Assembly (NCBI GenBank): GCA_021513695.1
Contig: CP084166.1
Location: forward strand, 1,248,001 to 1,312,000
Direction: 5' to 3'
DNA from: Candidatus Heimdallarchaeum aukensis
GTDB lineage: Archaea; Asgardarchaeota; Heimdallarchaeia; Heimdallarchaeales; Heimdallarchaeaceae
DNA length: 64,000 bases
The notes below the pieces were generated by a model that was given only the letters and a program-made list of their open reading frames with translations, had not been told where the DNA came from and ran no database searches. The translations under genes and the position numbers were made by a program. Below, piece by piece: positions 14,822 to 50,333 of this stretch (its first letter is position 1; each line of letters opens with the position of its first letter).

Positions 14822-15547
14822 TTATTTTACAATTACTTTTGATTGTACAATATGAGGGCTCACACTTTTGTTAAAACGTACAACAACGTTATTTTCTCTT
14901 GATTTACGTTTTCCATGTATGCGAGTAATTTTTCCGATTATTTCTAGATTATTTTCAGGATTAGTTACTATAGCCTTCCTACCAATATAATTTGCTAAAG
15001 GCATTTCAATGTTCAGTAATTTTACAATTATTGAATTATTTGATGATCTCCCTACTTTATCATGAACTATAGTCTGTACAACACCATATGTTTGAGAAAC
15101 AACTTTCTCTTTTTTAGGCTTTCTAGTCTTTGGTTTTTTAGTTTTAGGTTTTACTTTTGGAATAATTGGTTCCTTTTTCTTAACAGGAGTTATCTTTTCT
15201 TTCTTAGGTTTGGGCTCAGCTTTCTTCTTGGGCTCAGCTTTTGGTTCAGCTTTTGGTTTAGCTTTTGGTTTAGCTTTTGGTTTAGCTTTTGGTTCAGCTT
15301 TTGGTTTAGGTTCGGCTTTCTTCTTGGGTTCAACTTTTGCAGGAGTAGCTTTTTCACCAGCTGATTCTAGAATCTCTTTAGCTGCTCTTCTCATTTTATC
15401 AGCAGTTACTTTACCTACACCTGGGATTTCTGTTAACTCCTCAAGAGAAGCATTAGCAATTTTTTCTACAGTGTCAAATCCTCTCTTTTTTAGATCCTCT
15501 GCTTTTTTAGCACCAATCCCCGGAATATCAGTAATTTTTAGTTCCAT
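14822..15547 (-). CDS. Ribosomal protein L35Ae domain protein with an N-terminal HhH domain and K/P/A/E-rich repeat linker
   Basis: The C-terminal ~85 aa align to archaeal L35Ae (YGVV..NN.IIVK....IGRK.....IIGKITRIHG....VVVRF). The N-terminus DIPGIGAKKAEDLKKRGFDTVEKIANASLEELTEIPGVG is an HhH motif. The middle is (KPKAEP)n, encoded by 18-nt tandem DNA repeats. Confidence 0.7.
   Translation of the reverse strand: MELKITDIPGIGAKKAEDLKKRGFDTVEKIANASLEELTEIPGVGKVTADKMRRAAKEILESAGEKATPAKVEPKKKAEPKPKAEPKAKPKAKPKAKPKAEPKAEPKKKAEPKPKKEKITPVKKKEPIIPKVKPKTKKPKTRKPKKEKVVSQTYGVVQTIVHDKVGRSSNNSIIVKLLNIEMPLANYIGRKAIVTNPENNLEIIGKITRIHGKRKSRENNVVVRFNKSVSPHIVQSKVIVK
15195..15330. repeat. Coding tandem repeat (about seven 12-18-nt units, gcttttggtttagcttttggttcagc...) encoding the K/P/A/E low-complexity linker
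   Basis: Direct reading of the DNA; the repeat lies inside the 14822-15547 CDS. Confidence 0.8.
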
Positions 15548-23724: not shown

Positions 23725-25497
23725 TTATTCTTCTTTTTTCTCCTCTTGAAACAGTGGTGGTGAAAGAATAGCAGTCGATTCTATACTTAATATTCCTTTA
23801 TCCATTGCTTTTTTGACATATCCAAAATAGTCCAGTTCATAGATATATTTCATCAATATTTCTTTACGAATATTTAGTATTTTAGACAATTCTTCGACTG
23901 TTAGAGCCCTTGAGAAGTCGTTTAAGATATAAAGTATCCTGTATTTTGGATCTGTATTGAGGAATCCTTCAAGATTCTTCAAGGTTATGCTTAGAGTATC
24001 TATTTTCTTTCTTAATTTTTGAATATCCAGCTCATATTGATATTTTTCTTCACTACTTATTGTTCCTTGTTTCTCTATTTTATCTAGTGTTACTTTAGTA
24101 CTTAGCAACTCTTTTTCAGTTTCTTCAAGTTTTGAAGTTAACTCTTTAATTTTTGCTTGTTGAGCTTCTAATTCCTTCTGTATTCTTTCTTTTTCTTCAG
24201 AGAGACTATTAGCTCGTTCTTGAAGTTCTCTTGATTCCGCATCTTTTTCTGCAATCTGAAGCATAAATTCGTCAATTTGTGTTTGTACTTCATGAAGTTC
24301 TCTTTCTTTTCCGCTTATTTCTTGTTGAAGTTCAATCATTGTTTCTGCTAAGCGTTCAATATCTGAATCTTTCTCCTTTAATTGAATTTGAAGTTCTGTT
24401 ACTTGATTTTCGAGACTCTCAATCTTTGATTGTTGTTCAACAATTGTTCTATCTTTTTCTTCAATTTGTTGCTTTAACTCCTTCTCGAGTTCTCCTAATT
24501 CAGATATCTTTGAAGTTTCACTTTCTTGTTCTTTCATTTTTTCTTGTATTAATTTTAATTCATTCTTTAAGTGTGTATTTTCCTCTTTTAACTTGTTTAT
24601 TTCCTCTTTTGCATGGTCTAAATCTATTTTTAGAGCCTCGATTTGATTAGCTTTCTGAGATATGTCTATTTTCTGATTTCTAATAGTATCCTCATTTTCA
24701 GCTATTTGATTTCGAAGATTAAAAATAGTCAATCTAGCTTTTTCTAGTTGTTTTTGAAGTTCTTCAAAAAACTGATCTTCTTTTGATACACTCTCTGAAC
24801 GAATAACTCTAAGTTTACTTTCTAATTCCTCCATTTGCTTTGCATAAGAATCTCGTTCAATTTTTATTCTATTAAGTTCAGATTGTAGATTAGTTTTTTC
24901 AAGGGTTAACTTCTGGATTTCTCTATCTTTGTCTCTGATTACCTCATCTCTTTCTTTTATTAAACTTTCATCGATTTTTGGAATTGCTGCTGTTTCTGCC
25001 AATTCAGTTATTTTTCCTTCTATGTTTTGAATATATGCTTGTGCTTCTGCAAGTTCTTTCTGTAAAAGAGCATTTTCTTTATTTAACTGCTTTACTTTAT
25101 TGTTTAATTCATCTCTCTCTTTTTCCAAAGAAGGAACTCTTTCTGACTCTTTCTTGTATCTTGCAAGTTGATCCAACATTTCTTCTTTTATAAAACCACC
25201 ATTTACAAATCCTTGTTCGATTGCAGTCCTAATCTTTGTTGTTCCCTCTGTTACAATCATTAAATGCACGTCATTTAAAACTTGAGAATAGCTTGACTTG
25301 AAACTTTTTATTATAGCATCAACTTCACTTACTGTATATTGAGATTTTCCAGGAGCTAAAGATTGGCTCTTGATTTCTTCAGCTTTAGCTTTAACTTGCT
25401 CTTGAGCACTTACTCTTAAAACTCTCATCTCGTTTAAAAACTTTTGAAGTTGATCCCTTACAATTTTAAAAGGACTATCGGCCACTGCTGATGCCAT
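23725..25497 (-). CDS. Long coiled-coil protein with C-terminal winged-helix domain
   Basis: About 370 aa of heptad-rich E/K/L/Q sequence; C-terminal ILYILNDFSRALTVEELSKILNIRKEILMKYIYELDYFGYVKK resembles a wHTH. Confidence 0.5.
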   Translation of the reverse strand: MASAVADSPFKIVRDQLQKFLNEMRVLRVSAQEQVKAKAEEIKSQSLAPGKSQYTVSEVDAIIKSFKSSYSQVLNDVHLMIVTEGTTKIRTAIEQGFVNGGFIKEEMLDQLARYKKESERVPSLEKERDELNNKVKQLNKENALLQKELAEAQAYIQNIEGKITELAETAAIPKIDESLIKERDEVIRDKDREIQKLTLEKTNLQSELNRIKIERDSYAKQMEELESKLRVIRSESVSKEDQFFEELQKQLEKARLTIFNLRNQIAENEDTIRNQKIDISQKANQIEALKIDLDHAKEEINKLKEENTHLKNELKLIQEKMKEQESETSKISELGELEKELKQQIEEKDRTIVEQQSKIESLENQVTELQIQLKEKDSDIERLAETMIELQQEISGKERELHEVQTQIDEFMLQIAEKDAESRELQERANSLSEEKERIQKELEAQQAKIKELTSKLEETEKELLSTKVTLDKIEKQGTISSEEKYQYELDIQKLRKKIDTLSITLKNLEGFLNTDPKYRILYILNDFSRALTVEELSKILNIRKEILMKYIYELDYFGYVKKAMDKGILSIESTAILSPPLFQEEKKEE

Positions 25498-25565
25498 ATT
25501 TATTTCCCTTAACTTTTTTTATAGAATAAGATATATTCTACATATAAATAAGTTTCTTCTAAGAA

Positions 25566-25675
25566 TAGTACTTCCGAATTATCTCAAAAAGTATGAATTG
25601 AGAACACGCCAATGATAGTATGAACTCCTATAATTTTAACCTATAGAAATCAGTCAACTTATTGCGGAAGTACTA
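25566..25675. mobile_element. MITE-like element, copy 1 (110 bp, perfect 11-bp TIRs TAGTACTTCCG/CGGAAGTACTA, flanked by TAAGAA direct repeats)
   Basis: Matches the copy at 41225-41334 (109/110 identical; the single difference is at element position 76, 25641 c vs 41300 t); terminal inverted repeats and 6-bp flanking duplications read directly. Confidence 0.75.
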
Positions 25676-26361
25676 TAAGAAATAGAAAAAGAGAATTTGT
25701 AAATCTTATCCTCAAACTCGTCGATTTCTCTTAAAAAACCAGGCAATTTAAACAGAGGAACAATAGGTACACCATTAAAAATCTTAACAGAAACATTTTT
25801 CCAAGAAACAACGAGTGCAATTAATTTTACCTTATTTCTAATGGGTAATCCTAGTTTAGTCATCAAATCAGAATATATTTCAGGAAATACTTCAATTAGA
25901 GAATCTAATCTTTCTTTCTGCAGTAAAGCAGCTTTAGAATAGTAACTTGGTGGGCTCTTTTTGTGGTATTTACAATCAATTAAAAAAAGGAAAGGAAATT
26001 TAAAAGCTATTATATCTATTTCATTGGTACTTTTAGACTCTGTCTTTATTCTGTAACTATGTAGAGTAGAGTACCCACTTTGATCAAATGCACTAGAAAC
26101 TATCAATTCAAAATCTTTCCAATTTATATGCTTAAGTATCAAATCAGGAACCGAAGAACAAACCAGTAAATTAAAAAGAAGAGAACCGCGCTCTTTTTCA
26201 CTAAAATTAGTATTAGAGTAGAATCGCTCTAATGAGATATTACTTCTTGATAATATAATGTTAAACTTATTTTTGTCAAGTTCATAAATTAACTTATCAT
26301 CATTTGTTAATTCATTTTTTATCCGGTGTAAGATAAATTTTGATACTTTATCAATTTCCAA
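25654..26361 (-). CDS. Hypothetical protein, possible PD-(D/E)xK nuclease fold
   Basis: EIDIIAF ... FLIDCKYHKK resembles a D ... (D/E)xK motif; the last 7 codons and the stop codon lie inside the MITE copy. Confidence 0.35.
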   Translation of the reverse strand: MEIDKVSKFILHRIKNELTNDDKLIYELDKNKFNIILSRSNISLERFYSNTNFSEKERGSLLFNLLVCSSVPDLILKHINWKDFELIVSSAFDQSGYSTLHSYRIKTESKSTNEIDIIAFKFPFLFLIDCKYHKKSPPSYYSKAALLQKERLDSLIEVFPEIYSDLMTKLGLPIRNKVKLIALVVSWKNVSVKIFNGVPIVPLFKLPGFLREIDEFEDKIYKFSFSISYSTSAIS

Positions 26362-26378
26362 AAATTACACCATTTAGA

Positions 26379-27146
26379 TTAAGCTGAACCTTTTGCAACT
26401 TTTATTCTATGAATAATTATCTCTCTTGTTAGTTGTTCTATCGGTTGTGCTACTTTTTGAACATTAGGTGGTCTTTCTCCTTTTTTCAATCTTCCATATT
26501 CATCAAGTTTTTCTTTTACGTTTGGACTTCGAAGAAGTGACATTAGCTCATTTCTAGCATTTAAACAAGAGATTTCCATTACTCGCATATATGCTTCTCC
26601 TTTATTTTGAGCCAAACCTTTTTCTACCACTAAATCGAGAAAATCATCTGTAGGTCTTCTTTTTTCTGCAGGAAGATCTATTTTGTTTAGTACAATCAAG
26701 AAAGGTAAAGAATTTCCGAGTTCATCCCCTTTAAGTTCAATTAGCTCATCAAGGCTTTCAACATTATCTTGCCACATTTCTTTAGATGGATCAAACATAA
26801 AAATTAGTCCATCTGCTCCTTCAAGGACTACCTTTCTTTGTATATGATGTCTTTTCTGTCCTGCAACTGTCCAAACTTGATATCTTAATTTAGGGACGCT
26901 TACTCCTTGACCTTTAGGCAATTCAAAAGTACTCTGGTCATAAAATATTGTTCTTCCAGAAGGGTCATCAATTTTCTTTAGTGATGAATAGATTGTTTCT
27001 GGATCTTCTACTTTTCTTAACACATTATATACTGTTAACATACTAGTTTTTCCTGCTAAAGAAGGTCCAAAAATAACGATTTTAAGGTAAGGAACACCCG
27101 AAGCATCCACTTTGAAGATATCGCTAATTGATAATTTACTTGACAT
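26379..27146 (-). CDS. MglA-like Ras-superfamily small GTPase
   Basis: KIVIFGPSLAGKTSML, GRTIFYD (switch I Thr), RYQVWTVAGQKRH (switch II), NKIDLP; close to bacterial MglA (KIVYYGPGLCGKTT ... LYTVPGQ ... NKRDL). Confidence 0.75.
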   Translation of the reverse strand: MSSKLSISDIFKVDASGVPYLKIVIFGPSLAGKTSMLTVYNVLRKVEDPETIYSSLKKIDDPSGRTIFYDQSTFELPKGQGVSVPKLRYQVWTVAGQKRHHIQRKVVLEGADGLIFMFDPSKEMWQDNVESLDELIELKGDELGNSLPFLIVLNKIDLPAEKRRPTDDFLDLVVEKGLAQNKGEAYMRVMEISCLNARNELMSLLRSPNVKEKLDEYGRLKKGERPPNVQKVAQPIEQLTREIIIHRIKVAKGSA

Positions 27147-27620
27147 ACTAACCTTTCCGTTAACTGTTCTTTTCTTTTAATTCGTTATTAGAGTTATAAA
27201 AATTTTGTTGGTTAGTTTTCTATAAATTTTTCTTTCTTATTAAGTTATCGGCTGTTTTAGCCAAAATTAAAATGAAATTTAAAAATCCTCATAGCAAAAG
27301 GAATAGACATATATTTTTAATGAGATGAAATATTAAGTAACTAACAAAAGCCTATATTTTTTAAATGAATTTTAAATAATGATTATTCCAAAAAATTCTT
27401 ATTCTTTTCTCGTTATGAGAACAAGTAATACAGTCAAGAGCAATTTCTAGTGTGATAGACTTACGAAATGATGACCATGAAAAATTTATATACCAAAATG
27501 TAAATATGTACGAAATATAGATATAGTTCAAAACGAAAAAGATAAAACCCATTATGCTGTATCTAGATAGAATAAATAAAGAGCAATAAAATTGTTGATG
27601 AATATAGTTAAGGTGAATTA
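27147..27620. promoter_or_regulatory. AT-rich divergent intergenic region between a MglA-like gene (-) and a GTPase-roadblock operon (+); likely holds both promoters
   Basis: 474-bp non-coding gap with multiple TATA-like tracts; the 88-aa ORF inside has non-coding composition. Confidence 0.3.
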
Positions 27621-28640
27621 ATGTCATTTTACGAATTTAGACGTCGAATATTAGAAGAAAAGAAACGACAACAAAAACAACAAAGTAAAATTGGAGAAAA
27701 AATATCTGCGTCATTTTCACAACCTGAACTAGAGACAGGTAGAACAAAATACAGTGTTGCTTTATTAGGATTGGAAAGAGCAGGAAAAACTTCTTTAGTT
27801 AAGAAGTTATTAAAACAAGACGACATAGTTACACGACCAACCTATGGAGTAAACATTGAATCATATCATTATCGAGATTTAAATTTCACATGTTTTGATC
27901 TTGGAGGCCATGCGCCTTTTAGATTAAGTTTATGGAAAAAGTTTATTGAAAGAGCAGATGGAATTCTATATTTAGTTGATTCTGCAGATAACTCAAAATT
28001 TGAAGAGTCAAAACAAACCTTTTGGCATTATATTAATTTCGCGAAACCTAATAGTCCAGTATTATTCTTAGCAAATAAAAGTGATTTACCTAATTCAAAA
28101 GAATTAGCTGAAATAAATGAATACTTCGAGCTAGATAAATTTCTAAGAAACCTTAGACCTTTTAATGTTAAAAAAATCTCTGCTAAAACTGGACAAGGAG
28201 TTTATGAGGCTTGGGATTGGATGGTCGAGATTCTTTGTGGAGCTCAGCAATGGAAAGTTAAAATTGCTGCAGCAGTATTAACTGATGTTTCTGGAAACAT
28301 TCTTTCAGAAGCTATGTTTGGTAGACCAGATGAACAAGCCCATTTAGCTTCTGATTTTAGAAAACTCAAAGAATTAGCCAAACTGTTTGCTATTGAAGCA
28401 AAAGATAGTATTCAAAGTGTAAAACTTGAAAGCTTATTTAAAAAACACGTCAGCCACGTTAAGCGAGGAGCTTATGCATTATCTGTAATGATAGACCCAA
28501 TTGATCCAGTTACTCGGGCACAACAAATTCAACTTCGGATTTTGGAATATTTCAGCAGAAATGCAAATATAACTCAAGATTCATTAGAAGATGTATTCAT
28601 CAGCAAGTTTCCTCTCGAAGTTGAGAAAGGAATTAGATAA
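27621..28640 (+). CDS. Sar1/Arf-family GTPase fused to a C-terminal roadblock-like domain (first of a tandem pair)
   Basis: ALLGLERAGKTS, TYGVNIE, FDLGGHAPFR (Sar1-type His), LANKSDLP, SAKTGQGVYEAWDWM (Arf-like G5), then a roadblock-like tail KIAAAVLTDVSGNILSE ... AYALSVMIDP. Confidence 0.75.
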   Translation: MSFYEFRRRILEEKKRQQKQQSKIGEKISASFSQPELETGRTKYSVALLGLERAGKTSLVKKLLKQDDIVTRPTYGVNIESYHYRDLNFTCFDLGGHAPFRLSLWKKFIERADGILYLVDSADNSKFEESKQTFWHYINFAKPNSPVLFLANKSDLPNSKELAEINEYFELDKFLRNLRPFNVKKISAKTGQGVYEAWDWMVEILCGAQQWKVKIAAAVLTDVSGNILSEAMFGRPDEQAHLASDFRKLKELAKLFAIEAKDSIQSVKLESLFKKHVSHVKRGAYALSVMIDPIDPVTRAQQIQLRILEYFSRNANITQDSLEDVFISKFPLEVEKGIR

Positions 28641-28643
28641 AAA

Positions 28644-29645
28644 GTGAGAAAAATGAGTAGTTACCTATCATTCCTTAGAGATAAAGTTATCTCCCAAAAA
28701 GGAGAAAAAATACCGCATATAGCAATTTTAGGCCTAGATAAATCTGGAAAGTCTACAACAGTTAATAGATTACTTTTTGGAACTGTGTCGGACGCTAATC
28801 CTCCTCAATCTACTTGCTTCATCAACATTTATTATGGTAAATCTCTGATTAGTGTTTTAGAAGCAGATGAGGAGACAGCAAGAGAAAGCCCCTATTTCCA
28901 AGATATCCTTTCTCAAATTGATGGGGTAATTTTTATTATTGATACTGAAACAAAACGTCATGTAGAAGCTTCTTTTGAATATATTTACAGTTTATTAGAT
29001 AAAATCCCCCAACAAACACCAATGTTATTCTTAGCGAATAAAATGGATATTGAAAATGCTATTCCCTTCGAAGAAATATTATTAGATCCTGCATTTCAAG
29101 TAATAACAGATGACATTAACCGTTCTGTCTCGATCTATGATATTAGTGCAAAAACGGGAGAGAACTTCTACACAGCTTTTGATTGGATAATATCTCGAAT
29201 TACAGGAAGAACACCTTTGAGAGAAGAAGTAACTTTGAAAAGAGTAATTATTTTACAAGAAGGAGGTGTTCCAGCATTTGATCACACATTTGATACAAAG
29301 ATTGAAGAACATGATAGCACTTTACTCGGGGGGTTAATTAGTGCTTTAAACATCATGGCTACAACAATTTTTGAGAGTGAGTCTGTAATGGACATAGTTA
29401 AACTTGGCCATTTCAAGCTAGTTATCAGAAAAATGCAAGGGTGGACAGGGGTTTTATTCGTAAATAGAGATGACAGTGAATCAAAAGCTCAATCTCTCGC
29501 TGAAGAAATATTAAAAGCATTTATTGAAGAAAAAAATAGAAAACCAGATCAAGAACTAGCAAGAGAAACAAAATATGAATTATTGCATAAAATACCAGAA
29601 ATTGCAATATTATTAGATCAAGAATTAGATCAAGAAATTAATTAA
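28644..29645 (+). CDS. Divergent small GTPase-roadblock fusion with degenerate switch II (second of the tandem pair; possible pseudo-GTPase)
   Basis: G1 ILGLDKSGKST and G4 LANKMD are retained, but the DxxG(Q/H) position reads LEADEETARE. C-terminal roadblock-like VIILQEGGVPAF ... FKLVIRKMQGWTGVLFV. Separated from the previous gene by 3 nt. Confidence 0.7.
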   Translation: MRKMSSYLSFLRDKVISQKGEKIPHIAILGLDKSGKSTTVNRLLFGTVSDANPPQSTCFINIYYGKSLISVLEADEETARESPYFQDILSQIDGVIFIIDTETKRHVEASFEYIYSLLDKIPQQTPMLFLANKMDIENAIPFEEILLDPAFQVITDDINRSVSIYDISAKTGENFYTAFDWIISRITGRTPLREEVTLKRVIILQEGGVPAFDHTFDTKIEEHDSTLLGGLISALNIMATTIFESESVMDIVKLGHFKLVIRKMQGWTGVLFVNRDDSESKAQSLAEEILKAFIEEKNRKPDQELARETKYELLHKIPEIAILLDQELDQEIN

Positions 29646-29657
29646 GGAGTTAAAAAA

Positions 29658-30425
29658 ATGATAAATCCAAGTCAAATGAGAGCACCAAAAATGGTCTTTA
29701 GCATTTTTAAAGATTATGGACCAGAAATAGAATTCAACAACACAAGCCTTACAGAAGAGCAAGCTTTAGCACTAGTTATGAGTGGTTTTACACTTGTGGA
29801 AATGAATAGAGATTATAAAGGAAGGTTAGATGGATCAAAGATGCCAAGAATGTTAGGACCCATTCCAGTTCCAGACACAACAATGAAAGCTATCGCGATT
29901 CCTTTCGAAACCAAAATAACTTCCTCTGAAGATGAAAGGATTGCAGAAGCAGGATATAGAGATTGTGTTGTTTTCTTCATTTTTGAGGGTAGTAAATTAA
30001 GAGAAGTATTAGATAGTTATGGAATTGTTGAACCCTATTTCTCTATGATTGCCCGAAGTTTAAGCGAAGAGAAATCTATCACACCAAGCAACTTGAAAAA
30101 GGTCTATGAACGTATGGTTGATATGTTTACAGGCCGAATTCCGCGTATTTTCAAGGTTAATGACGATAACACAGTTAAAGAGATTATTGGTAAAAGGCTT
30201 GAACATGCAGATGCATATCTAATATGTGATTTAGAAAGAAAAAATATGTACATACTATTGTATAACAGTGATATAGATATCTGGAGAAAAAGAGAAATAG
30301 AAAAAGTTTCTTCTGAAGTAAATTCAAAGATGTTTAGAAGTGCATTGAGAAGAAAGTTTGTTACAGATATTGGAGAAATATCACAAATTTTGAATTTACT
30401 AAATATTGAAATTGCTCCTGTATAA
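29658..30425 (+). CDS. Hypothetical protein, third gene of the GTPase-roadblock operon (possible longin/roadblock-like N-terminus)
   Basis: Starts 12 nt after the previous gene; AAGGAG Shine-Dalgarno-like motif upstream; no catalytic motif. Confidence 0.45.
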   Translation: MINPSQMRAPKMVFSIFKDYGPEIEFNNTSLTEEQALALVMSGFTLVEMNRDYKGRLDGSKMPRMLGPIPVPDTTMKAIAIPFETKITSSEDERIAEAGYRDCVVFFIFEGSKLREVLDSYGIVEPYFSMIARSLSEEKSITPSNLKKVYERMVDMFTGRIPRIFKVNDDNTVKEIIGKRLEHADAYLICDLERKNMYILLYNSDIDIWRKREIEKVSSEVNSKMFRSALRRKFVTDIGEISQILNLLNIEIAPV

Positions 30426-30545
30426 TTTTGTTTTTCTTGATTTGTTTAACTTCTTTTTTTATTTCCTTAGAAACATTATTTTTTTCATACGATTTTATGT
30501 AAAAAGTTAAAAACTATATAATAAAGTGAAAACAATGTGAATTAG

Positions 30546-31079
30546 ATGAGTGAACTAAACAATGAATTAGAAATGCATGACGAACGTAGTAAGTTAGAAA
30601 AAATTGCAAATAGAATCAGTTCAATCTCATATATACAGTCTGTAAGATCATTTTTGTCAAGAGAAAAAAAAATAGCAGTAATAGTTGATGGACCTAATTT
30701 CTTAAGAAAAGTAAAAAACAAACAGGTAAAACTTGACGATATTGAAGAAAAAATTAAGGATGAAGGAAAAATCGTTATCAGAAAAGTATTGTTAAATGAG
30801 TTTGCTGGCGAAAGTTTGCTACAAGCAGTTTTCAATAGTGGATATGAGCCAATTGTAACAGCACATGATATATACATTCAGATGGCTATAGAGGTAACAA
30901 AATTACTATCAGAAAAAATAGATTCTATATTCTTTGCTACACGTCATGCAAGAGCAGTGCCTATTGTCCAAAAATTGAAAGAAAAGGGAGTTGAAGTGGC
31001 ATTGATAACTTATGAAAGTGGTTTAAGCATTGCTCTAAAAAAGACAATAGATAAAATATTCTATATAGAAATTGATTAG
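30546..31079 (+). CDS. NYN/LabA-like domain protein (tentative)
   Basis: KIAVIVDGPNFLRK start and overall pattern resemble LabA/NYN, but the acidic active-site residues are not all evident. Confidence 0.3.
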   Translation: MSELNNELEMHDERSKLEKIANRISSISYIQSVRSFLSREKKIAVIVDGPNFLRKVKNKQVKLDDIEEKIKDEGKIVIRKVLLNEFAGESLLQAVFNSGYEPIVTAHDIYIQMAIEVTKLLSEKIDSIFFATRHARAVPIVQKLKEKGVEVALITYESGLSIALKKTIDKIFYIEID

Positions 31080-31104
31080 TGAACAAATTAATCAATTGAA
31101 AAAC

Positions 31105-32367
31105 TTATAATCCCTCATTCTGCCTTGTAGAAGAACTTAGTTTAACTCTTCTCTCTTTTTTACTAAATTCTGTTATAAGATATAAATCTGCAATTGTATT
31201 TAGGGCTGAATTCAATTTGTAATATGCTTTTCTATTTAAAGTTCTTTTAACAATTATATTCTTTTTTAACAGTTGAGACAAATGATAGGATATAGTTGTT
31301 TTTTGAATATTCAAATTTGATACTAGTTCTTCATAGCTTATACCAATATCTAAACCAATTGATTTTAGTGTAATTAGTGTTAATAAAAATACACGAGAGC
31401 TGTCTTCTTCATTAGAATAATTATAAAACTCATTAAAGGAATTATAATCTAAGAGAGAAGAAATATCATTAACAAGTTCAATGTAAGCTTTATCATAACC
31501 GTTATAGAAACATTCCTTACAGATTAAAGAAGTTAAATGTATTGCATTATGTAAATTAAGTAAAGAATTTTCAGATATCGCTTCAACAATTTCTGGACTA
31601 AATGGTTGTTGAATTTGGCCATTAATAGATAATCTTACTGATAAGATTTCGTAGATACTTTTCTCATCTAAAGGACTCAATTCAATTGCAGGTAAGGTTG
31701 AATTGTAAAATTGATCGGTATAATTTATTGTTGTAATTAAACTTTTTAATCTAATCCATGCGGGATAAGAAAAAACAAATAGAACTGAGGTTTTAGGAAA
31801 ACGAAATTTAAAAGATTCTAAAAATGTAACAAAGAAGTCAATTAGATAATCAGCATGATCAATTATTACTAAAGGAATCTCTTCATCATGAATATCATAT
31901 TTAGCAATTTCATTAATAATATTACGTGAAGAGAATGTAGGTTGGTAGTTTAAGTCTTTAGAGGACACAATTTCTTTTGCATCTATAATTATTGAGTTTT
32001 GCATTTCTTCTATTTCATTTTTTACGAGGATATGTGCTTTTTCAACTAAAGTGGATACACCACTACCCCTGTATCCAAATAATACTGCGTCAAGAAAGAG
32101 ATTATTTTGTCTGCTTTTATCTATATCAGCAATTAGAGTAATTATTTTACTTAGATTTGTATTGATTACCCCCTTTTCTATAAGAATGTTTATCTCATCA
32201 AAACTCACACTTTGTTCAAAAGGATTTTTCTGAAAACCAAATGCTCTGAAAGGGTCTTGAGAGGAAAATTCTATAGCCTTCGCTCTATCTATTGTTTCTT
32301 TCACAAATTTGCGAAGGTTTTCTGGAATTTCCATAATTTTTCCTCTATTGTAATATCTAGAAAACAT
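31105..32367 (-). CDS. Archaeal ATPase family protein (Arch_ATPase-like P-loop plus C-terminal wHTH)
   Basis: LFGYRGSGVSTLVEK P-loop-like; C-terminal ISYHLSQLLKKNIIVKR winged helix. Confidence 0.4.
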   Translation of the reverse strand: MFSRYYNRGKIMEIPENLRKFVKETIDRAKAIEFSSQDPFRAFGFQKNPFEQSVSFDEINILIEKGVINTNLSKIITLIADIDKSRQNNLFLDAVLFGYRGSGVSTLVEKAHILVKNEIEEMQNSIIIDAKEIVSSKDLNYQPTFSSRNIINEIAKYDIHDEEIPLVIIDHADYLIDFFVTFLESFKFRFPKTSVLFVFSYPAWIRLKSLITTINYTDQFYNSTLPAIELSPLDEKSIYEILSVRLSINGQIQQPFSPEIVEAISENSLLNLHNAIHLTSLICKECFYNGYDKAYIELVNDISSLLDYNSFNEFYNYSNEEDSSRVFLLTLITLKSIGLDIGISYEELVSNLNIQKTTISYHLSQLLKKNIIVKRTLNRKAYYKLNSALNTIADLYLITEFSKKERRVKLSSSTRQNEGL

Positions 32368-32617
32368 CTAACCTTTAAACTTTTTCGAATTATTCAAATT
32401 ATTCGAAATTTCGACAAAAAAACTAAATATTACGACAAAAAAGGGAACAATAAAAAAAACTATTTTGTTCAAACAGAAAGTATATAGTTATTTTCAAGTT
32501 TATTATTATTTGAAGAAATAATCTGAGAAAATTTATAAGTGCATCAATAAAGTAAAAATCAGAGAATGAAAAAATTTATAAGTGGGTGAATAAGTCCTGA
32601 GCTTTCGAGACCGAGAA

Positions 32618-33836: not shown

Positions 33837-36800
33837 ATGCTTAACCATTCGCACTATTTGATGATAAATCCAATAGATGAAACCAAAGCAAGAAAAGTCT
33901 TTCTCAAATCGCTATTTATTATCACAAGAACATTCTACTATAAAATATTTCAATATTCAAAAATTAAACAGAAGATTGAAACAAGAAAAAACAATATTAA
34001 GTATATCATTGGGGTTCTTATTTCATTAGTATTCATATGGCTAATTCCTTTCTTGCTTCTATTGGATTTCCTTTTAATTCTGTTCCTCCCTAGTCTTCAT
34101 ATTTTTAAACCAATGTTCAAAGCTGGATGGAAGTTTAATCTCATCACTACTGTAGGTGTTGTTTTAGCTGTTTCAATTATTTCTCAGTATGTATTTTTTA
34201 TTTATTCATACCAGTATCAGGCTTTTGAATTATATCTTGAAGATGAACCACGCACATTCATTCAAGCACAAATAGACTCTGTTTATATTCAACCATCTTA
34301 TACTCAGACATATCTCATTGATAGAATAGCAGATATAACTATCCAGGAGATGAATCTTACTAATAACATTCTCCAAAGAGATCTTTTCTTCAAACGAGGA
34401 ACATTTACTTCTACTTATGATCCAATAGCTAAGCAAACATATTTACCAAACTTACCATTAGTTGGATTAACAGATAGATTGAGCCTGTTTTTGTCTAATC
34501 ACCTAACCCAAGGGAGATTCCCAGAGAATAATGGTGAAGTTTTAGCCTTCCTTACTAGTAATTCTTATAATCATTCAACAATAAGAGTAAATAGCACAAT
34601 TAGTTTATACATTCCAATCTCATTGCTAAAACAAGCTTCACTATCTGCACCTCAAGCTCAAACCGAGGTTACAGTTACAGGAATAGTTATTGCTGATAAT
34701 TTAACAGATTTTTCAGTAATTGGAAGTAACAAAGGTATTCCTTTTGATGTTTTTCTAAACTTGTACGAGGGAAATGCGGTTCTCGCACCTTGGATAATTG
34801 CAGCTAGAATTCTTTCTTCAATCCAACTCACCTATGGATTTGCATCTATTTATGAAAATTTATTTTATGATATCGGTACCATTGACACTTTTAATTTAGA
34901 CGGCGAAATTTCAAAGCTTAAAGAGTTAGCTATCAATCTCAAAGATTCTTATCTACAGATGGGAGGATATACTGGAGTAGATATTAATTCTTATCTTCTT
35001 ACAGCATTAGAAGAGTTCAAGGCTGAATATAATTTATATCAAATATTCATGTTTGCTTTTCTTGCACCAATTATAGTTTTAACTTTAATATTAACTATTT
35101 ATGCTGCAAACCTTGTGCGTAAAAAAAGAGAAAGACAGCTTACAATTCTTACTGAAAGAGGAACAACAAAAATAGAAATCGGAAGTTATCTAGCGCTAGA
35201 ATCTCTTATATTTGGAATTATCGCACTATTTTTAGGAATAGCTCTTGGAATACCCATTTCTGCTCTTCTTACAAAGAGTACGGGATTCCTTTCATTTAGT
35301 AATCAGACATCCAGTCTTCAACTAAAAATTCCTTCATTATCTCAAGCATTATTTGGTAGTTTATTAGTTATATTCATTATTCAAACATTTAATGTAATTA
35401 CTTTACTTAAAACTAGAAGCATTGAGGACTATGGTAAAGTGGAGAAAACATTACCTAACTTTTATCGCTACTATGTTGATATTATATTTATTAGTACTGG
35501 AGCCATATTATGGTTTATTTATCAACTTCCTGTGTTGAGTGGTTTCAGGGATAAAACTACTAAAAGCATCGGAATTCCAGCTATGATTGTTCTACTATTT
35601 GGTGTTGTTTTACTCATTCAAAGATTACTTCCCTTATTCTCTAAATTCATATTAAAAATCACACAGTTTCCTAATGATAAAGTAAGAAAAAAGCTTCGAC
35701 TAGATATTTTCTCTTTAGGAATAAAAGAGATAACTCGATATCAATCTAGTTTTGTTAGATCCTCTGTTATTCTTAGTCTTTCATTTGCAATTGTAGTTAG
35801 CGCAATCATCGTCCCTGCTTCTTATCAGAGATTTAACACTGACGGAGCTTATTATGATTTAGGAGCAGATATTGTTATTGAAAATTTTCCATTAGAAAAT
35901 AAATTCTTAATTGGAGAAATAGAAAACCTTACTGAAATTCAATCAACATGTGTAGTAAAATATGCTGCTCTCTCCGATGTTTCGGGTGATTATGCAATTA
36001 CACACGCTATACTAGGAATAGAAGTTAATAAATTCGCCCAAACAGCTTTTTTCAGAGAAGATTTTTCGGATTACTCCCTGGAGGAACTACTGTCACTACT
36101 AAGTGATGACACAACACTACTTGCACAAGAAGATGAGATAAAAATAATAAACAAAGGAGTTGGAGACTCTCTAATACTGGGTTATCGTGCATACAACGAG
36201 ACAAGAAGGGAAACAGATGGTTCACCATTTTATAGATCAAATATAACAGTTGAGATTGCAGGGTTATTCAAATACTGGCCCGTATTAGTTAAAGAAATTT
36301 CAACTACTAATGTTTTATCAATCTTGAACCATTTTGTTGCAAACATCTCAATCTTCAACAAACTTGAATTATCTCCTTTTGAAATTACAGACTACTTATT
36401 GATTAAAGTAAATCAGGGAGAGGATATTGAAGAAGTTACAAAGAAAATAAAAACAGTCGCAGGTTCAAATGTTGATAATGTTTATTCAAAGATTTTTGTT
36501 AGAGAAGGAAGTGCTAGATCATCAATTTTGTACTCTGCGATAAACTCTACTCTAATAATGTCGTTTACAATTAATTCTTTAATTATAGCACTCTACGCTT
36601 CTGTACAATTAATTGAAAGATCGAGAGAGATAGCAACTATGAAAGCAATTGGAGTTTCTAAAACACAGCTATTATTGCTTTTTCTATCTGAGTACGCAAC
36701 ATTACTAATTTTCTCAACTATTATGGGATTGCTAAGTGGTCTATTTTCTTCGTGGATGTTGATGAACATTATTACAATAAATCGTTCTATTCCTCCATTT

Positions 36801-36935
36801 ATCATGAAGTTTCCTGCATTCTATATTGCCTTAGTAGCTATTATTTTGTTTTTAACCGCATTTATTGGAGCACTTATCCCCTCTTTAACTGCAACTAACA
36901 AAAACATTGGAACAGATTTAAGGCAGTCAAGTTAA
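33837..36935 (+). CDS. ABC transporter permease, FtsX/MacB-like with large extracytoplasmic domains (1032 aa)
   Basis: Two four-TM FtsX-like modules separated by large soluble loops; followed directly by an ABC ATPase gene. Confidence 0.65.
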   Translation: MLNHSHYLMINPIDETKARKVFLKSLFIITRTFYYKIFQYSKIKQKIETRKNNIKYIIGVLISLVFIWLIPFLLLLDFLLILFLPSLHIFKPMFKAGWKFNLITTVGVVLAVSIISQYVFFIYSYQYQAFELYLEDEPRTFIQAQIDSVYIQPSYTQTYLIDRIADITIQEMNLTNNILQRDLFFKRGTFTSTYDPIAKQTYLPNLPLVGLTDRLSLFLSNHLTQGRFPENNGEVLAFLTSNSYNHSTIRVNSTISLYIPISLLKQASLSAPQAQTEVTVTGIVIADNLTDFSVIGSNKGIPFDVFLNLYEGNAVLAPWIIAARILSSIQLTYGFASIYENLFYDIGTIDTFNLDGEISKLKELAINLKDSYLQMGGYTGVDINSYLLTALEEFKAEYNLYQIFMFAFLAPIIVLTLILTIYAANLVRKKRERQLTILTERGTTKIEIGSYLALESLIFGIIALFLGIALGIPISALLTKSTGFLSFSNQTSSLQLKIPSLSQALFGSLLVIFIIQTFNVITLLKTRSIEDYGKVEKTLPNFYRYYVDIIFISTGAILWFIYQLPVLSGFRDKTTKSIGIPAMIVLLFGVVLLIQRLLPLFSKFILKITQFPNDKVRKKLRLDIFSLGIKEITRYQSSFVRSSVILSLSFAIVVSAIIVPASYQRFNTDGAYYDLGADIVIENFPLENKFLIGEIENLTEIQSTCVVKYAALSDVSGDYAITHAILGIEVNKFAQTAFFREDFSDYSLEELLSLLSDDTTLLAQEDEIKIINKGVGDSLILGYRAYNETRRETDGSPFYRSNITVEIAGLFKYWPVLVKEISTTNVLSILNHFVANISIFNKLELSPFEITDYLLIKVNQGEDIEEVTKKIKTVAGSNVDNVYSKIFVREGSARSSILYSAINSTLIMSFTINSLIIALYASVQLIERSREIATMKAIGVSKTQLLLLFLSEYATLLIFSTIMGLLSGLFSSWMLMNIITINRSIPPFIMKFPAFYIALVAIILFLTAFIGALIPSLTATNKNIGTDLRQSS

Positions 36936-36947
36936 GAAGGTGAAAAA

Positions 36948-37796
36948 ATGTCATTCATTGAAATTCAAGATCTAATCAAAATTTATGAAAGTAAAGAAAC
37001 ATTCATTCGAGTTCCTGCTCTCCGAGGAATAGAACTACAAGTAAAAAAAGGAGAATTTATATCTATAATAGGCCCTTCAGGGAGTGGAAAAACAACTCTA
37101 CTTTTAATTCTTGCAGGAATGACAGAACCTTCAGCTGGTTATGTAAGAGTAGATGATATCCAAATTGACAAGTTAGATGATACTCAAAGAGCATATTATA
37201 GAAGAAATCATGTTGGTACACTATGGCAACTTCCAACTAGAAATTTGATTTGGGAGTTACCTATTATTGAAAATGTTGAACTACCTATGAGACTATTAGG
37301 AGTAACAAGAGAAGAGAGAAAAAAACGAGCAAAAGAACTTTTAAAGGAAGTGGGCCTAGAACATAGAATAGAACACAAACCTCCACAACTAAGTGGAGGA
37401 GAAGTGCAAAGAGCAGGCTTAGCTACAGCACTCGCTCATCAACCAAAGCTTCTACTTGCTGATGAACCAACTGGAGAATTAGATTCACACACAGCAGAAG
37501 AGTTGCTTATCTACTTTAGAGATCTCAATAAGAGTTATGGAATCACTGCTATCATGGTTACACATGACTATTTCGTAGCATCAAAGACAAACAAAATTGT
37601 TCAAATTGTTGATGGAAGAATTTCGGGATATAACCCTGCAAGAGAACTAGAATCACTTATTGATATGGATAAGGTTTATATTGATAGATATGGTTGTATT
37701 CAACTTCCCAGACATATTGTTGAACAAATAGAAACACAAAAAGAGATTAAAGTATCAATGGAAAATGGTAAAATAATTCTAGAACAAAATAATTAA
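36948..37796 (+). CDS. ABC transporter ATP-binding protein (MacB/LolD-like)
   Basis: Walker A GPSGSGKTT, signature LSGGEVQR, Walker B LLLADEPTGELD, H-loop VTHD. Confidence 0.9.
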   Translation: MSFIEIQDLIKIYESKETFIRVPALRGIELQVKKGEFISIIGPSGSGKTTLLLILAGMTEPSAGYVRVDDIQIDKLDDTQRAYYRRNHVGTLWQLPTRNLIWELPIIENVELPMRLLGVTREERKKRAKELLKEVGLEHRIEHKPPQLSGGEVQRAGLATALAHQPKLLLADEPTGELDSHTAEELLIYFRDLNKSYGITAIMVTHDYFVASKTNKIVQIVDGRISGYNPARELESLIDMDKVYIDRYGCIQLPRHIVEQIETQKEIKVSMENGKIILEQNN

Positions 37797-37831
37797 ATTA
37801 TCAATGAGAAAACAGACACAAGCTGATAAAT

Positions 37832-38101
37832 ATGAAGCTTAAAAAGGGCAATAAAAAAGAAAAAGATGAAAAAGAAAAACCTGACAGGTTACTTGACCTA
37901 ATTATCATCAAAATGATGCTTGCTCTAACTTTAAGTGTCGTATTTTTATTTGGAGGGGGGACAATGTTTATTTATGCTTCTTTTAACAACATTGAAATTG
38001 AGGGATATAGTTCCATCTTTGGCTCAATTTTTGGAGTTCATATAGCAATTTTAATGCTTTATTATTCTGTTTCACTTTTCAAGTATATAGTTTCTGATTA
38101 G
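37832..38101 (+). CDS. Small membrane protein
   Basis: 89 aa, two hydrophobic helices after a K/E-rich N-terminus. Confidence 0.3.
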   Translation: MKLKKGNKKEKDEKEKPDRLLDLIIIKMMLALTLSVVFLFGGGTMFIYASFNNIEIEGYSSIFGSIFGVHIAILMLYYSVSLFKYIVSD

Positions 38102-38113
38102 GAGAATAAAATA

Positions 38114-38845
38114 ATGTTTGGGAAAAGAGAGAAAGACAAAAAAAAGAAAAAAAAAGAAATCGATTACATACACTTAACAAGAAATGAAAAAATAAAAAAG
38201 ATAATTATTTTCACAATAAAATCCGGTTTAGGAACTATTGGAACAATTGTTGTAATAAGCGTTATTTTATATTTATTCCATTACGACCCATTTTTCTTTT
38301 TTGAAAGATCGATTCTAATTATTTCTGCATTTATTCTTTTAACAGGAGGATGTATCGGAGGTCTAGGTCGGTACCACCCATCTCCTAAATTGAGAATAAT
38401 TGAACCAGAAGACCAAGGAGTTATTCCTCCTTCTTTTAGAATCAAAGTAAAGTATGACAAAGACCTAATCCAAAAAGAAACAATTACAATTAAAGTAAAT
38501 GAAAAAGAGATGCCTAAAAAAGAAGAAAAAGATGATGTAATTTCTGTTCCGAAAATATTCAAGACAGAACCAAAGAAGGCAATTCCTCTAGATATTAATG
38601 TTGTTGCTCTCAATAATAAAGGAAAGGAAATTAAAGACCAAATTAAAGTTATATGCGATCCTGATGAAGACCCTGAAGACTATGAAGATTACTGGGAATT
38701 CAAAAAAGATAATTATTGGACTAAAGAAACAAAATCAGCAAACAGATCTGCAAAACAAGGATTACGAGCTTTAAAATTAATATCACTCTCTATAACTTTA
38801 CTACTCATTAATGCTCTAGTTACAGCTATTAGAGGATGGGTATAA
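38114..38845 (+). CDS. Membrane-anchored protein with extracytoplasmic domain
   Basis: Lys-rich N-terminus, two TM helices, C-terminal TM. Confidence 0.4.
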   Translation: MFGKREKDKKKKKKEIDYIHLTRNEKIKKIIIFTIKSGLGTIGTIVVISVILYLFHYDPFFFFERSILIISAFILLTGGCIGGLGRYHPSPKLRIIEPEDQGVIPPSFRIKVKYDKDLIQKETITIKVNEKEMPKKEEKDDVISVPKIFKTEPKKAIPLDINVVALNNKGKEIKDQIKVICDPDEDPEDYEDYWEFKKDNYWTKETKSANRSAKQGLRALKLISLSITLLLINALVTAIRGWV

Positions 38846-38963
38846 AATTCTAATTAAGGAGGGAGATTTTAAAATTTCTATTTGCATTCTAGTGCACACA
38901 CGTAATAACCAACACTTTAAATATTTATTTTGAGGATATAAATTTAAGAATTAATTTTTATAA

Positions 38964-41198
38964 ATGTTAAGAGGTCGAAAATTGAATAAAAAAACAGTAT
39001 ACATTATAATTTGGAATATACTATCTATTTACATTTTGGTTTCTAGTTTATCATACCATAATGTAATTGCTGAAGATATAACAATAAATGAAAATAGTGG
39101 TGTTTCACCAAAAGATTTGTTTTTGAAAGACCCTACTAATCCTACTCAAGTATTGAAAGCAGAAATAAATCAGAAAAAAGATCAACTTGTTAGCTTTTCT
39201 CCAAGAGTATCGAATGACAAAGAATTTTCTGATGCATTAGATGATGAGAGGAGTTTCTGGACAATTCAGAGTTTTAATAGCTATCCTTATACATATGTTC
39301 AAATTACGGCAACATTATTGGCTATTGGAGACCACACTTATGTCTATGTTGCAAATAGTGTAATTAATAATGTAGGAAAATCTACTGCACAATCAAAAGC
39401 TGAAACTTACAGAGATGAATTTGATGATGTTATTTATCCATCAGATACGTTATACTTTGGCTCTCCTGATGGATATCTAGGAGATATTGATGGTGACCCA
39501 AAAGTAACCATGTTATTACTATCTCTTGATGGGGGTGTTGCTGGTTATTTTGATCCTATTAACGAGTACGTTGACTCGAATTCGAATCAAAGAGAAATGA
39601 TTTATGTCAATTATGATATGTCAGATATTCAATATAGCTTTGCTGTTATTGCCCATGAATTTCAGCATTTAATACATTTTAATCATGATCAAGATGAACT
39701 ATGGTTTATTGATGAAGGGTGTTCTGAATTTGCAACTTATGCCGCTGGATATTGGGCTGGAAATGACAATCTGACTTATTTTGCTGAAGATAATTTTGCA
39801 AATAATCCCATAGATTCTTTGCTTTATTGGAATTACGATAGTGAAGGAGGATACGATGTTAGAATCGATTATGGTGGAGCATATTTGTTTATATTTTATC
39901 TGGCAGAGAAATATGGCTTTCAAATAATTGAAACTTTAGTTGCTGAAACAGCAAACGGAGCTCAAGGAGTTGAAAATGCTCTCATTGATGAAGAGATTCC
40001 TCTCACATTCAACGATTTATATCTAAATTGGATCACTGCATTGACTATCGATGCACCGAATATTGAAGGCGGATTATATGGGTTCGTGAATTTAGACATT
40101 CAAATAAAAGTTAAGACTGAAATTTCAAATGTTCCTACAGAAAGTAATAATGAATTGCATAGATATTATGGTATCCATGTAACTAAAATTACATCCGGAA
40201 GCGATAATATATTCTTTGAAATTTCAGGTTCTGACCAATATGCAATAGGCTTTTCAATTGCAGTTTTGGATTCTGAGGGCTGGCATATTAATCAGTCAAT
40301 AAGTGACATTTCAACTGAATCTAAATTGGAGATAATACAAGGAAAAGACATTTTGCGCATTTATGTTATTACAAGTTTATTAGATCCTGACACACCTTTT
40401 GTTGACAGTAATGATCAATTTGGATTAGGTCCTTACGAATATCTGGACTTGAACATATATGTAGGCAATCCATTATCTATCCAAAATGTACATTCAACTT
40501 ATGAAGAATCAACATGGACATACATTATTTCTGGAGTACGTATTTATGATGTAAACAATACAGAACTCGATAACACTTCTCAAATTGATGTTTTCGTAGA
40601 ATTTAAGGGAAGCGAAGGATTTCAAATGATAAAATCGCTAAATTATTCAGATACAGATTATTGGAATGGTCAATTTTCATTACAAAGTTTTTCAGAAGAT
40701 ACTTATTCAGTAAAACTTTTTGCTAAAAATAGTTCAGCTTTTGGAAGAATCAATCTAGCCGACATTATTGTTGAACACATCATTACTGTAGAAAAACCAT
40801 CTATTGAAATTTCAGGAGATTACTTAGTTATAACTGTTGGAGCTTCTTACACTCAACTTAATGGTTGGGAAAATTTCACTAAATATGCCGAGGTAAAAGC
40901 AGTTATCTATGACATTTCTTCAAGTACTCCTGCAGATGTAATTGATTTATCTTATGACTCTGGATTAGATAAATGGACTAGTGGAAGCTACTATTATGCA
41001 AATCTTACTTATGGTGATTATTACGTGTCTGTAACTTTTAAATATGGTTACCGAACTGTCACATCAAATAATTCAGATATTTTTTCAATCGAGACAGAAG
41101 ACACTACACCTCCAAGCTTTACTCCTTTCCCATTAATATCGACAACTTTAGCAATTGCCACCCTTGTTGCTGTTTTAACCCTGAAAAAGCGAAAATAA
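38964..41198 (+). CDS. Secreted zinc metallopeptidase-like protein (HExxH) with C-terminal TM anchor
   Basis: N-terminal signal/anchor helix, HEFQHLIHF ... DEG (zincin-like motif), C-terminus PPSFTPFPLISTTLAIATLVAVLTLKKRK (TM plus basic tail). Confidence 0.55.
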   Translation: MLRGRKLNKKTVYIIIWNILSIYILVSSLSYHNVIAEDITINENSGVSPKDLFLKDPTNPTQVLKAEINQKKDQLVSFSPRVSNDKEFSDALDDERSFWTIQSFNSYPYTYVQITATLLAIGDHTYVYVANSVINNVGKSTAQSKAETYRDEFDDVIYPSDTLYFGSPDGYLGDIDGDPKVTMLLLSLDGGVAGYFDPINEYVDSNSNQREMIYVNYDMSDIQYSFAVIAHEFQHLIHFNHDQDELWFIDEGCSEFATYAAGYWAGNDNLTYFAEDNFANNPIDSLLYWNYDSEGGYDVRIDYGGAYLFIFYLAEKYGFQIIETLVAETANGAQGVENALIDEEIPLTFNDLYLNWITALTIDAPNIEGGLYGFVNLDIQIKVKTEISNVPTESNNELHRYYGIHVTKITSGSDNIFFEISGSDQYAIGFSIAVLDSEGWHINQSISDISTESKLEIIQGKDILRIYVITSLLDPDTPFVDSNDQFGLGPYEYLDLNIYVGNPLSIQNVHSTYEESTWTYIISGVRIYDVNNTELDNTSQIDVFVEFKGSEGFQMIKSLNYSDTDYWNGQFSLQSFSEDTYSVKLFAKNSSAFGRINLADIIVEHIITVEKPSIEISGDYLVITVGASYTQLNGWENFTKYAEVKAVIYDISSSTPADVIDLSYDSGLDKWTSGSYYYANLTYGDYYVSVTFKYGYRTVTSNNSDIFSIETEDTTPPSFTPFPLISTTLAIATLVAVLTLKKRK

Positions 41199-41224
41199 CT
41201 CTTTTTTCTTTTTTTTAAAAAAAT

Positions 41225-41334
41225 TAGTACTTCCGAATTATCTCAAAAAGTATGAATTGAGAACACGCCAATGATAGTATGAACTCCTATAATTTTAACT
41301 TATAGAAATCAGTCAACTTATTGCGGAAGTACTA
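41225..41334. mobile_element. MITE-like element, copy 2 (110 bp, same 11-bp TIRs, flanked by AAAAAT direct repeats)
   Basis: 109/110 identical to 25566-25675 (single difference at element position 76: 41300 t vs 25641 c); sits 44 bp upstream of the MglA-like gene start. Confidence 0.75.
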
Positions 41335-41378
41335 AAAAATCTAATAATGTTTAAATATATCGAAACCAATTTTTTATT

Positions 41379-42137: not shown

Positions 42138-42254
42138 CCTTTTTTTATCTTTTTTTCACGATGTTTATATAGTATTTTCTAGATTATTGTTTAAAGTAAA
42201 TCAAGTGTCTAATTCGATACTTATAATGTAGTAAATATAAAAGGAGTAGATAAA

Positions 42255-43301: not shown

Positions 43302-43332
43302 AAAAATAATTAAATTAACAAAATTAACAGAA

Positions 43333-50285: not shown

Positions 50286-50333
50286 ATTTCGTTTACTGCT
50301 ATTCCCTTACTGTTTAGATCTTCAATAAAGTAA
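49137..50333 (+). CDS. Thiolase (acetyl-CoA acetyltransferase), copy A, with a junction-derived C-terminal tail
   Basis: Identical to copy B for 382 aa, then reads SFTAIPLLFRSSIK across the duplication junction instead of LGRGDN. Confidence 0.7.
   Translation: MSNEVYIIGTGQTKFGEFFNLNIGDLASEAVNKAIENAGIGKDEIRTLFIGSTVSNSLSQSSIGGICTRSCSLSSNAYRIESGNASGAAAFHHAFLSIKSGLYDVVAVLGIDKLSDYIQNGTIEKILASSIDYQWEYEMGATLTGLYSFLTQAHMEEYGTTLEQLAYIPTKNHQNGVLNPKAQYRYAIPLEKFLNAKRIADPIGRFDVATPCDGAAVVILASERYIENKKPHSYKVKILSSSAGSDTLALQHREKLTELKATRLAVNDAYNKAKISANDINVAEVHDSHPIGEILAIEDLGLVPKGEGGKATVEGLTALNGKITVNPSGGLKARGDPFGATGIAQLIEIVEQIRGNAGKRQVEDVKYGLTQNVMGTGVMSYVSISFTAIPLLFRSSIK

Follow-up and report, generated by a model that had tools for sequence, protein, structure and literature searches.

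The stretch of DNA analysed here (64 kb, called the window throughout) has about 31% G+C, and 92% of its length lies in ORFs of at least 100 aa. Positions 25326-32604 are about 88% identical at the DNA level to the genome of Ca. Heimdallarchaeum endolithica PR6 (CP084167.1, hereafter PR6), and because the identity over this aligned stretch is only about 88%, the window comes from a different, Heimdallarchaeum-like genome that is related to PR6 yet distinct from it. Logan contigs from SRR15988954 and SRR15988958 match the window at 99.9-100%. When the window was compared with itself, a 110-bp element present in two copies and one unrelated tandem duplication were the only repeats found.

The two copies of the 110-bp element (Table 1) are identical at 109 of 110 positions, and the sole difference is C at 25641 versus T at 41300. 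Both start with TAGTACTTCCG and end with its reverse complement CGGAAGTACTA, which means that the TIRs are perfect over 11 of 11 bases; once extended, they become imperfect (14/16). A search for the TIR 11-mer with up to one mismatch gave four matches in the window, every one at an end of the element, where about 0.57 matches were expected and 0 of 100 shuffles reached four. The sequence-only reading had described a near-identical 110-bp pair with perfect 11-bp TIRs and a different 6-bp direct repeat around each copy, and we found all of this in the window as described. The coding content of the element is limited to an 8-codon remnant of a transposase start, and no transposase gene is encoded within the 64-kb window.

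Table 1 Coordinates and properties of the MITE copies, associated features and related loci (window positions unless a handle is given; L numbers are our handles for contigs and loci)
Feature	Position or sample	Strand	Remarks
MITE copy 1	25566..25675	+	110 bp; oriented from IS left end to IS right end
MITE copy 2	41225..41334	+	110 bp; oriented as copy 1
Copy 1 left TSD	25560..25565		TAAGAA
Copy 1 right TSD	25676..25681		TAAGAA
Copy 2 left TSD	41219..41224		AAAAAT
Copy 2 right TSD	41335..41340		AAAAAT
Copy 1 left TIR	25566..25576	+	TAGTACTTCCG; IS-type left terminus extends to position 17 (GAATTAT)
Copy 1 right TIR	25665..25675	-	CGGAAGTACTA on + strand; last 18 bp match IS right end
Transposase-start remnant	25620..25646	+	ATG plus 7 codons, then TAG; aligned to IS left ends and homologous to the start of the IS transposase gene
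NERD-like ORF	25654..26361	-	duplicated hexamer and MITE copy 1 supply its last 7 codons and TGA stop
PR6 TSDs	18 copies		16 perfect 6 bp, one 7 bp, one 5/6
CAZHRF01 TSDs	9 copies		seven 5 bp, one 6 bp, one none
Metagenome TSDs	7 copies with both flanks		five 6 bp, one 5 bp, one none
CAZHRF01 relatives	L001, L002, L004-L006, L009, L014, L017, L025		108-110 bp
States of the copy-1 site			empty in L079; MITE in the window; MITE in PR6 (L003 240-349, same orientation); left end of full IS in L080

The MITE family and its parent IS

To count the members of the family, species-representative genomes were scanned for the pattern TIR-N(75-105)-TIR; only copies with exact TIRs were accepted, so the numbers are lower bounds. 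The scan returned 27 loci, of which 18 are in PR6 (all 110 bp) and nine are in the CAZHRF01 MAG, an "uncultured archaeon" (108-110 bp). The metagenome collection added eight real copies and one unrelated palindrome. The 18 copies of PR6 differ from each other at a mean of 2.2 of 110 bases, seven of them are identical to their consensus, and the two window copies differ from this consensus at two and three positions. The CAZHRF01 elements have kept the 16-17 terminal bases and the length, and their interiors are highly divergent and largely unalignable; L006 1610-1717, L017 7217-7324 and L025 3878-3983 are degenerate copies. The palindrome from the metagenomes (L034 1950-2061, Ga0105051_10117101) is perfect over 112 bp and lies in inverted flanks where its contig ends. 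It carries the same 11-nt ends yet is unrelated to the MITE family, and it is probably a fold-back assembly artefact. A search of IMG/VR for carriage by viruses gave 0 matches to the TIR-pair pattern, and 36 single matches to a degenerate 16-mer were judged to be chance, as no oppositely oriented pairs were among them.

The duplicated sequences at the family members are all different from one another, and the chance of a single perfect 6-bp match is about 5e-4 (computed from about 69% A+T). The reading of the element as a non-autonomous transposon with TIRs and a 6-bp TSD, proposed from the letters of the window, is thus strengthened by duplications that recur across more than 30 copies. The flanking hexamers are not coincidental: 16 of the 18 PR6 copies carry a perfect 6-bp TSD. 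Two copies are without any TSD (L002 4481-4588 and L036 49-157), as would be expected if one copy had recombined with another.

A parent IS with the TIRs of the MITE, which the sequence-only reading had envisaged, was found in PR6 with the same termini and TSD length. One IS (L030 2947-4163) is 1217 bp long, has the same TIR as the MITE and a TTCTAT TSD, and encodes an intact 355-aa transposase (P0001, UJG42406.1). A second (L026 4231-5460) is 1230 bp long with the same TIRs and a GAAAAT TSD, and its DDE transposase gene has at least five frameshifts. P0001 was found by searching with a protein stitched together from this frameshifted gene. Its 90% cluster includes proteins of Ca. H. aukensis and of other Heimdallarchaeaceae MAGs, and a search by exact match returned no record for the Ca. 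H. aukensis IS protein.

Alignment with these IS copies showed how the MITE is built. Positions 1-92 of the MITE correspond to the IS left end with 71 of 92 bases identical (about 77%), its final 18 bp are those of the IS right end, and all that lay between these two parts is gone. The retained left 92 bp of the IS comprise the TIR, the stretch that precedes the transposase gene, the ATG (MITE 55-57, window 25620-25622) and about 12 codons. All Heimdallarchaeum copies of the MITE have one common deletion junction, and they therefore go back to a single deletion derivative that was later amplified. Since the identity to the known IS left ends is only about 77%, the source of the MITE is an unrecovered IS variant that is about 23% diverged. 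A 108-bp variant from a metagenome (L033) is intermediate in sequence.

We estimate a probability of roughly 93% that both repeats in the window are copies of a MITE which is a non-coding internal-deletion derivative of a Heimdallarchaeum ISH3-like IS of about 1.2 kb. As no transposase is encoded in the 64-kb window, the partner IS is taken from relatives and from a sister strain. The DDE transposase encoded by the IS would move the MITE in trans by way of the common termini, would cut an AT-rich, palindromic target between genes with a stagger of 6 bp (sometimes 5 bp), and repair of the stagger would give the TSD. The chemistry would be cut-and-paste; the steps that go past the anatomy of the element lean on what known DDE transposases do.

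It is improbable, but deserves the most weight among the alternatives, that a different transposase mobilises the MITE and that the likeness to the ends of the ISH3-like IS is only historical. The interior of the MITE, only 77% identical to the recovered IS left ends, would agree with this, as would the lack of an encoded transposase in the 64-kb window and the TSDs of the CAZHRF01 relatives, which are mostly 5 bp and not 6 bp. But the 17-18 terminal bases at each end of the MITE are those of the IS, the IS copies share the 6-bp TSD length and a similar target, and in a sister strain an IS sits at the very insertion site of the MITE (L080, see below). Independent in-situ decay of full-length IS copies, with no amplification of a miniature element, has a precedent in the frameshifted, decaying IS copy of PR6 (L026) and is very hard to credit, because the deletion junction is identical and the length is 108-110 bp in all Heimdallarchaeum copies, the copies are about 98% identical mutually and only 77% identical to the IS, and copy 2 is absent from a 96-99% identical strain, which means that the 110-mer itself was inserted.

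The transposase P0001 was compared with profile collections for the assignment of the parent IS. Its best NCBIfam profile was NF033541 (ISH3 family; E 5e-39, positions 2-290 of 298) and the second best was IS4 (9e-10), but the score of 134 bits for NF033541 is under the curated cut-off of 225 bits. The protein also matches Pfam DDE_Tnp_1 and contains LAVDT, YADRGF and HRWGIETSYRLLK. Its motif YCHRWGIETSYRLLK (which reads ...DYCHRWGIETSYRLLK...) fits Y-(2)-R-(3)-E-(3)-R, the variant form that the YREK motif takes in ISH3 (De Palmenaer et al. 2008, PMC2266710). According to that 2008 survey, ISH3 elements are 1225-1500 bp long, end with CRGT, have direct repeats of 4-5 bp and occur in only two phyla, preferentially in Euryarchaeota (PMC2266710). 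The parent IS likewise has one DDE transposase with ISH3 as its best profile and an archaeal host, and short TSDs of about half a helical turn are common to both; its length (1217 bp intact, 1230 bp frameshifted) is at the lower edge of the ISH3 range. Unlike ISH3, it ends with TAGT in Heimdallarchaeum and has a TSD of mostly 6 bp, with 5 bp in CAZHRF01 and in one metagenome copy, and its host phylum is Asgardarchaeota, in contrast to the two-phyla distribution of the 2008 survey (PMC2266710). A relative from metagenomes (P0002, 49% protein identity) belongs to an IS that ends with CAGTACTTCCGAATTA, in which CAGT is the canonical CRGT. Because of the score below the cut-off, the TAGT ends and the mostly 6-bp TSD, we use the label "ISH3-like", and by these sequence features the parent would be classed as ISH3-like and not as a strict member of ISH3.

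Target sites and neighbouring genes

A target profile was built from 19 independent Heimdallarchaeum sites, from each of which the element and one duplication had been removed. All 19 sites have T at both -7 and -6, and 18 of the 19 have A at both +6 and +7; the left arm of the target is T-rich and the right arm A-rich. The target is thus a palindromic TT-N16-AA with the duplicated hexamer in its centre, and the transposase would meet a T-rich arm, TT at -7/-6, the duplicated N6, AA at +6/+7 and an A-rich arm. As read from their sequences, both IS copies also have AA at +6/+7, while positions -7/-6 are TT in L026 and TA in L030. A target matrix trained without the window sites and without their PR6 orthologue ranked the copy-1 target 5th among 63,742 positions of the window and the copy-2 target 140th, and positions no more than 10 bp from the copy-2 target took the 3rd-10th ranks.

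Among about 34 independent insertions, none interrupts a long ORF, and most lie 5-60 bp from a gene end. With 92% of the window in ORFs, the probability that all would be intergenic by chance is about 0.08^34. Position near gene ends would also suit a conserved structured RNA, or a gene-associated regulatory or terminator hairpin that is not mobile, and the suggestion from the letters alone that the element may fold into a stable hairpin held in so far as each strand folds better than shuffles (z about -3.5). The further reading as an sRNA or terminator was rejected, because this z stems from the TIR stem: RNAalifold on 12 diverse members recovered no structure except the TIR stem and no covariation, nothing inside the element matched when copy 1 and its flanks were scanned against Rfam, and the subfamilies have interiors that do not align with each other. 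An RNA gene would also not be expected to have TSDs, precise empty sites and a parent that encodes a transposase. The 110-mer is a discrete element and not part of a longer gene-associated structure, and we regard a non-mobile RNA or hairpin as highly improbable.

The insertion of copy 1 changed the end of a gene. If the insertion is removed, the NERD-like ORF would end at a TAG that overlaps the duplicated hexamer and would have 228 aa; with copy 1 it gains seven codons (YSTSAIS) and stops at a TGA at 25654-25656, which gives 235 aa. The PR6 orthologue (79% aa identity) has the same YSTSAIS tail. The sequence-only reading had noted that copy 1 supplies the last codons and the stop of this ORF, and the extension from 228 to 235 aa agrees with it. 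For annotation this means that at least one gene has a transposon-derived C-terminal tail. Copy 2 lies 26 bp past the stop of a 744-aa ORF, just beyond the T8 run of this ORF, and upstream of a TATA-like TTTAAATATA located 24-33 nt before the ATG at 41379 of ORF 41379-42137. It probably separates a putative terminator from a putative core promoter and breaks neither, both assignments being made from sequence.

Eukaryote-like signature genes are clustered in the window at 26379-27146, 27621-28640, 41379-42137 and 42255-43301, and their products are several small GTPases of the Arf, Ras and Roc types and an actin-like (ALP/MreB-like) protein. Genes for Roc-like GTPases adjoin both MITE copies; this proximity is probably a coincidence, as such genes are numerous.

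Polymorphism and reuse of insertion sites

Empty counterparts of both window sites were found in close strains. A JGI contig (L028) that is 96-99% identical to window positions 34295-43641 is without exactly copy 2 and one AAAAAT, and its junction reads T8-A7-T-CTAAT. Another contig (L079), with flanks 98.3% identical to the window, is without exactly copy 1 and one TTCTTA, and the empty allele ...CCATTTCTTA|GAAGAAAC... has a single hexamer. These single-hexamer junctions mean that both window copies are insertion polymorphisms with precise empty alleles, and the footprint of transposase-mediated insertion that had been recognised in the two copies is thereby confirmed. Copy 2 is a recent insertion. 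The locus L012 was considered as the PR6 orthologue of the copy-2 locus and rejected, since its flanks are unalignable with the window and only a similar T-run/A-run target is present.

Copy 1 has 97.3% identity between the window and PR6, the flanking genes have 79-92%, and the 62 bp of adjoining intergenic DNA have 93.5%. Selection or concerted evolution acting on copy 1 was considered and dropped, because the contrast with this intergenic stretch was not significant. In its consensus, the MITE is 97-98% identical between these two genomes, which over the aligned stretch given above are only about 88% identical. This high MITE identity suggests recent activity of a master copy that the species share or have exchanged, or else that the element moved horizontally from one Heimdallarchaeum species to another.

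Insertions have used the copy-1 site repeatedly, and four states of it were recovered (Table 1). In L080 (4494-4584; JGI 3300033150, Ga0366835_1019421) the left end of a full IS lies at the copy-1 junction in the opposite orientation. This strain is 98.3% identical to the window and belongs to the window's own species. The contig ends inside the IS; 113 nt of the left end are present with eight mismatches to L030, and they run beyond the deletion junction of the MITE. Because L080 is occupied by the IS and the sister sample L079 is empty, the full-length IS appears to be currently active in the population of the window species.

Three more reuse pairs were obtained when PR6 was compared with metagenome strains that are 95-99% identical to it. 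L026 2151-2260 and L037 1429-1538 have the same flanks and TSD, with the MITE flipped. L024 1551-1660 and L033 1980-2087 have the same TSD and orientation, and the elements belong to different subfamilies. Between L023 243-352 and L039 656-765 or L032 4878-4987, the MITE is flipped and shifted by 1 bp (AAAGAA versus AAGAAA), and the reconstructed empty sites are identical; these are unambiguously independent insertions.

A sequence hot spot as a sufficient cause of this reuse was rejected. From the matrix, some 700 effective sites are expected per genome, with about 0.06% of insertions at the copy-1 site, so sequence preference alone does not suffice. The reuse would then reflect either targeting that is much sharper than the matrix describes, or a preference for replacing or re-inserting resident elements. 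The more specific proposal, that the transposase picks a few intergenic sites with a precision near a single nucleotide or else preferentially replaces resident members of its family, is possible, and we hold it only tentatively as an idea that is rather unlikely to be right. If true, the local sequence would not be the only guide of integration; a host factor, the shape of the DNA or the resident element itself could play this part, and narrow targeting in particular would be a natural archaeal example of precise, sequence- or context-guided DDE integration.

Relation to known systems

Redder et al. (2001) reportedly described SM1-SM4 as MITEs of the archaeon Sulfolobus. SM1-SM4 and the ISH2/MITEHsal elements of Halobacterium are, like the present element, short, non-coding derivatives of resident IS elements bounded by TIRs and TSDs, which are multi-copy, strain-polymorphic and mobilised in trans (the last by inference for our MITE). 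As far as the accessible tables of the article on the Halobacterium elements (PMC7002104) show, no MITE falls under the ISH3 group. Our MITE has no sequence relationship to SM1-SM4 or ISH2/MITEHsal, is smaller (110 bp) and keeps the start codon of the transposase.

The MITE may also be compared with systems from other domains of life. Unlike the MITE as seen here, Correia elements of Neisseria duplicate TA and have a documented function as promoter, terminator or RNase III site. They and the MITE are both small and intergenic near gene ends, with many near-identical copies and an occasional overlap with the end of an ORF. Targeted transposition or replacement of the Drosophila P element involves a eukaryotic transposase and staggered donor cleavage. 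There, one member of a family takes the exact place of another, facing either way and with the TSD kept; L026/L037, L024/L033 and the MITE and IS of the copy-1 site resemble this. In contrast to P-element replacement, one of our cases has a 1-bp shift and an empty allele exists alongside the occupied ones, so that simple re-insertion at a hot spot is no less likely than replacement.

The claim that the element is undescribed stood within the searchable literature. The Heimdallarchaeum genome paper reported non-tandem repeats and 11 transposase/integrase families; MITEs are mentioned neither there nor in the 2024 Asgard MGE paper, and a 2026 archaeal IS survey has them in one generic sentence only. 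Full-text searches for the TIR sequence, or for "Asgard" together with "miniature inverted", found no mention, and bulk MITE catalogues may include the element unnamed. The element is of an ordinary kind, although it apparently has no name yet and lands with unusual precision; reuse of sites to the exact nucleotide is the one unusual trait of this IS/MITE family.

The family offers a concrete active IS/MITE pair for Heimdallarchaeum, which is among the lineages closest to eukaryotes, and the insertions are usable as strain-level markers. The MITE also explains breaks of short-read contigs, since L029, L032, L081 and L082 end in or at the element.

The unrelated tandem duplication of the window is perfect (4,189 bp, 100% identical) and occupies 46100-50288 and 50285-54473. 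It carries an HMG-CoA synthase-like gene, a thiolase gene and the N-terminal part of an S8 subtilase gene, which is present there as 1013 aa versus 606 aa. The boundary of this repeat, at 46129, is also where an independent short-read contig (L029) stops, and the duplication is either a very recent event or an assembly artefact. An intragenic tandem repeat is also present at 15204-15339 in ORF 14822-15547 (minus strand); it consists of 12/18/30-bp units that are TTTGGTTTAGCTTT-like, and it resembles the intragenic repeats reported for Heimdallarchaeum genomes.
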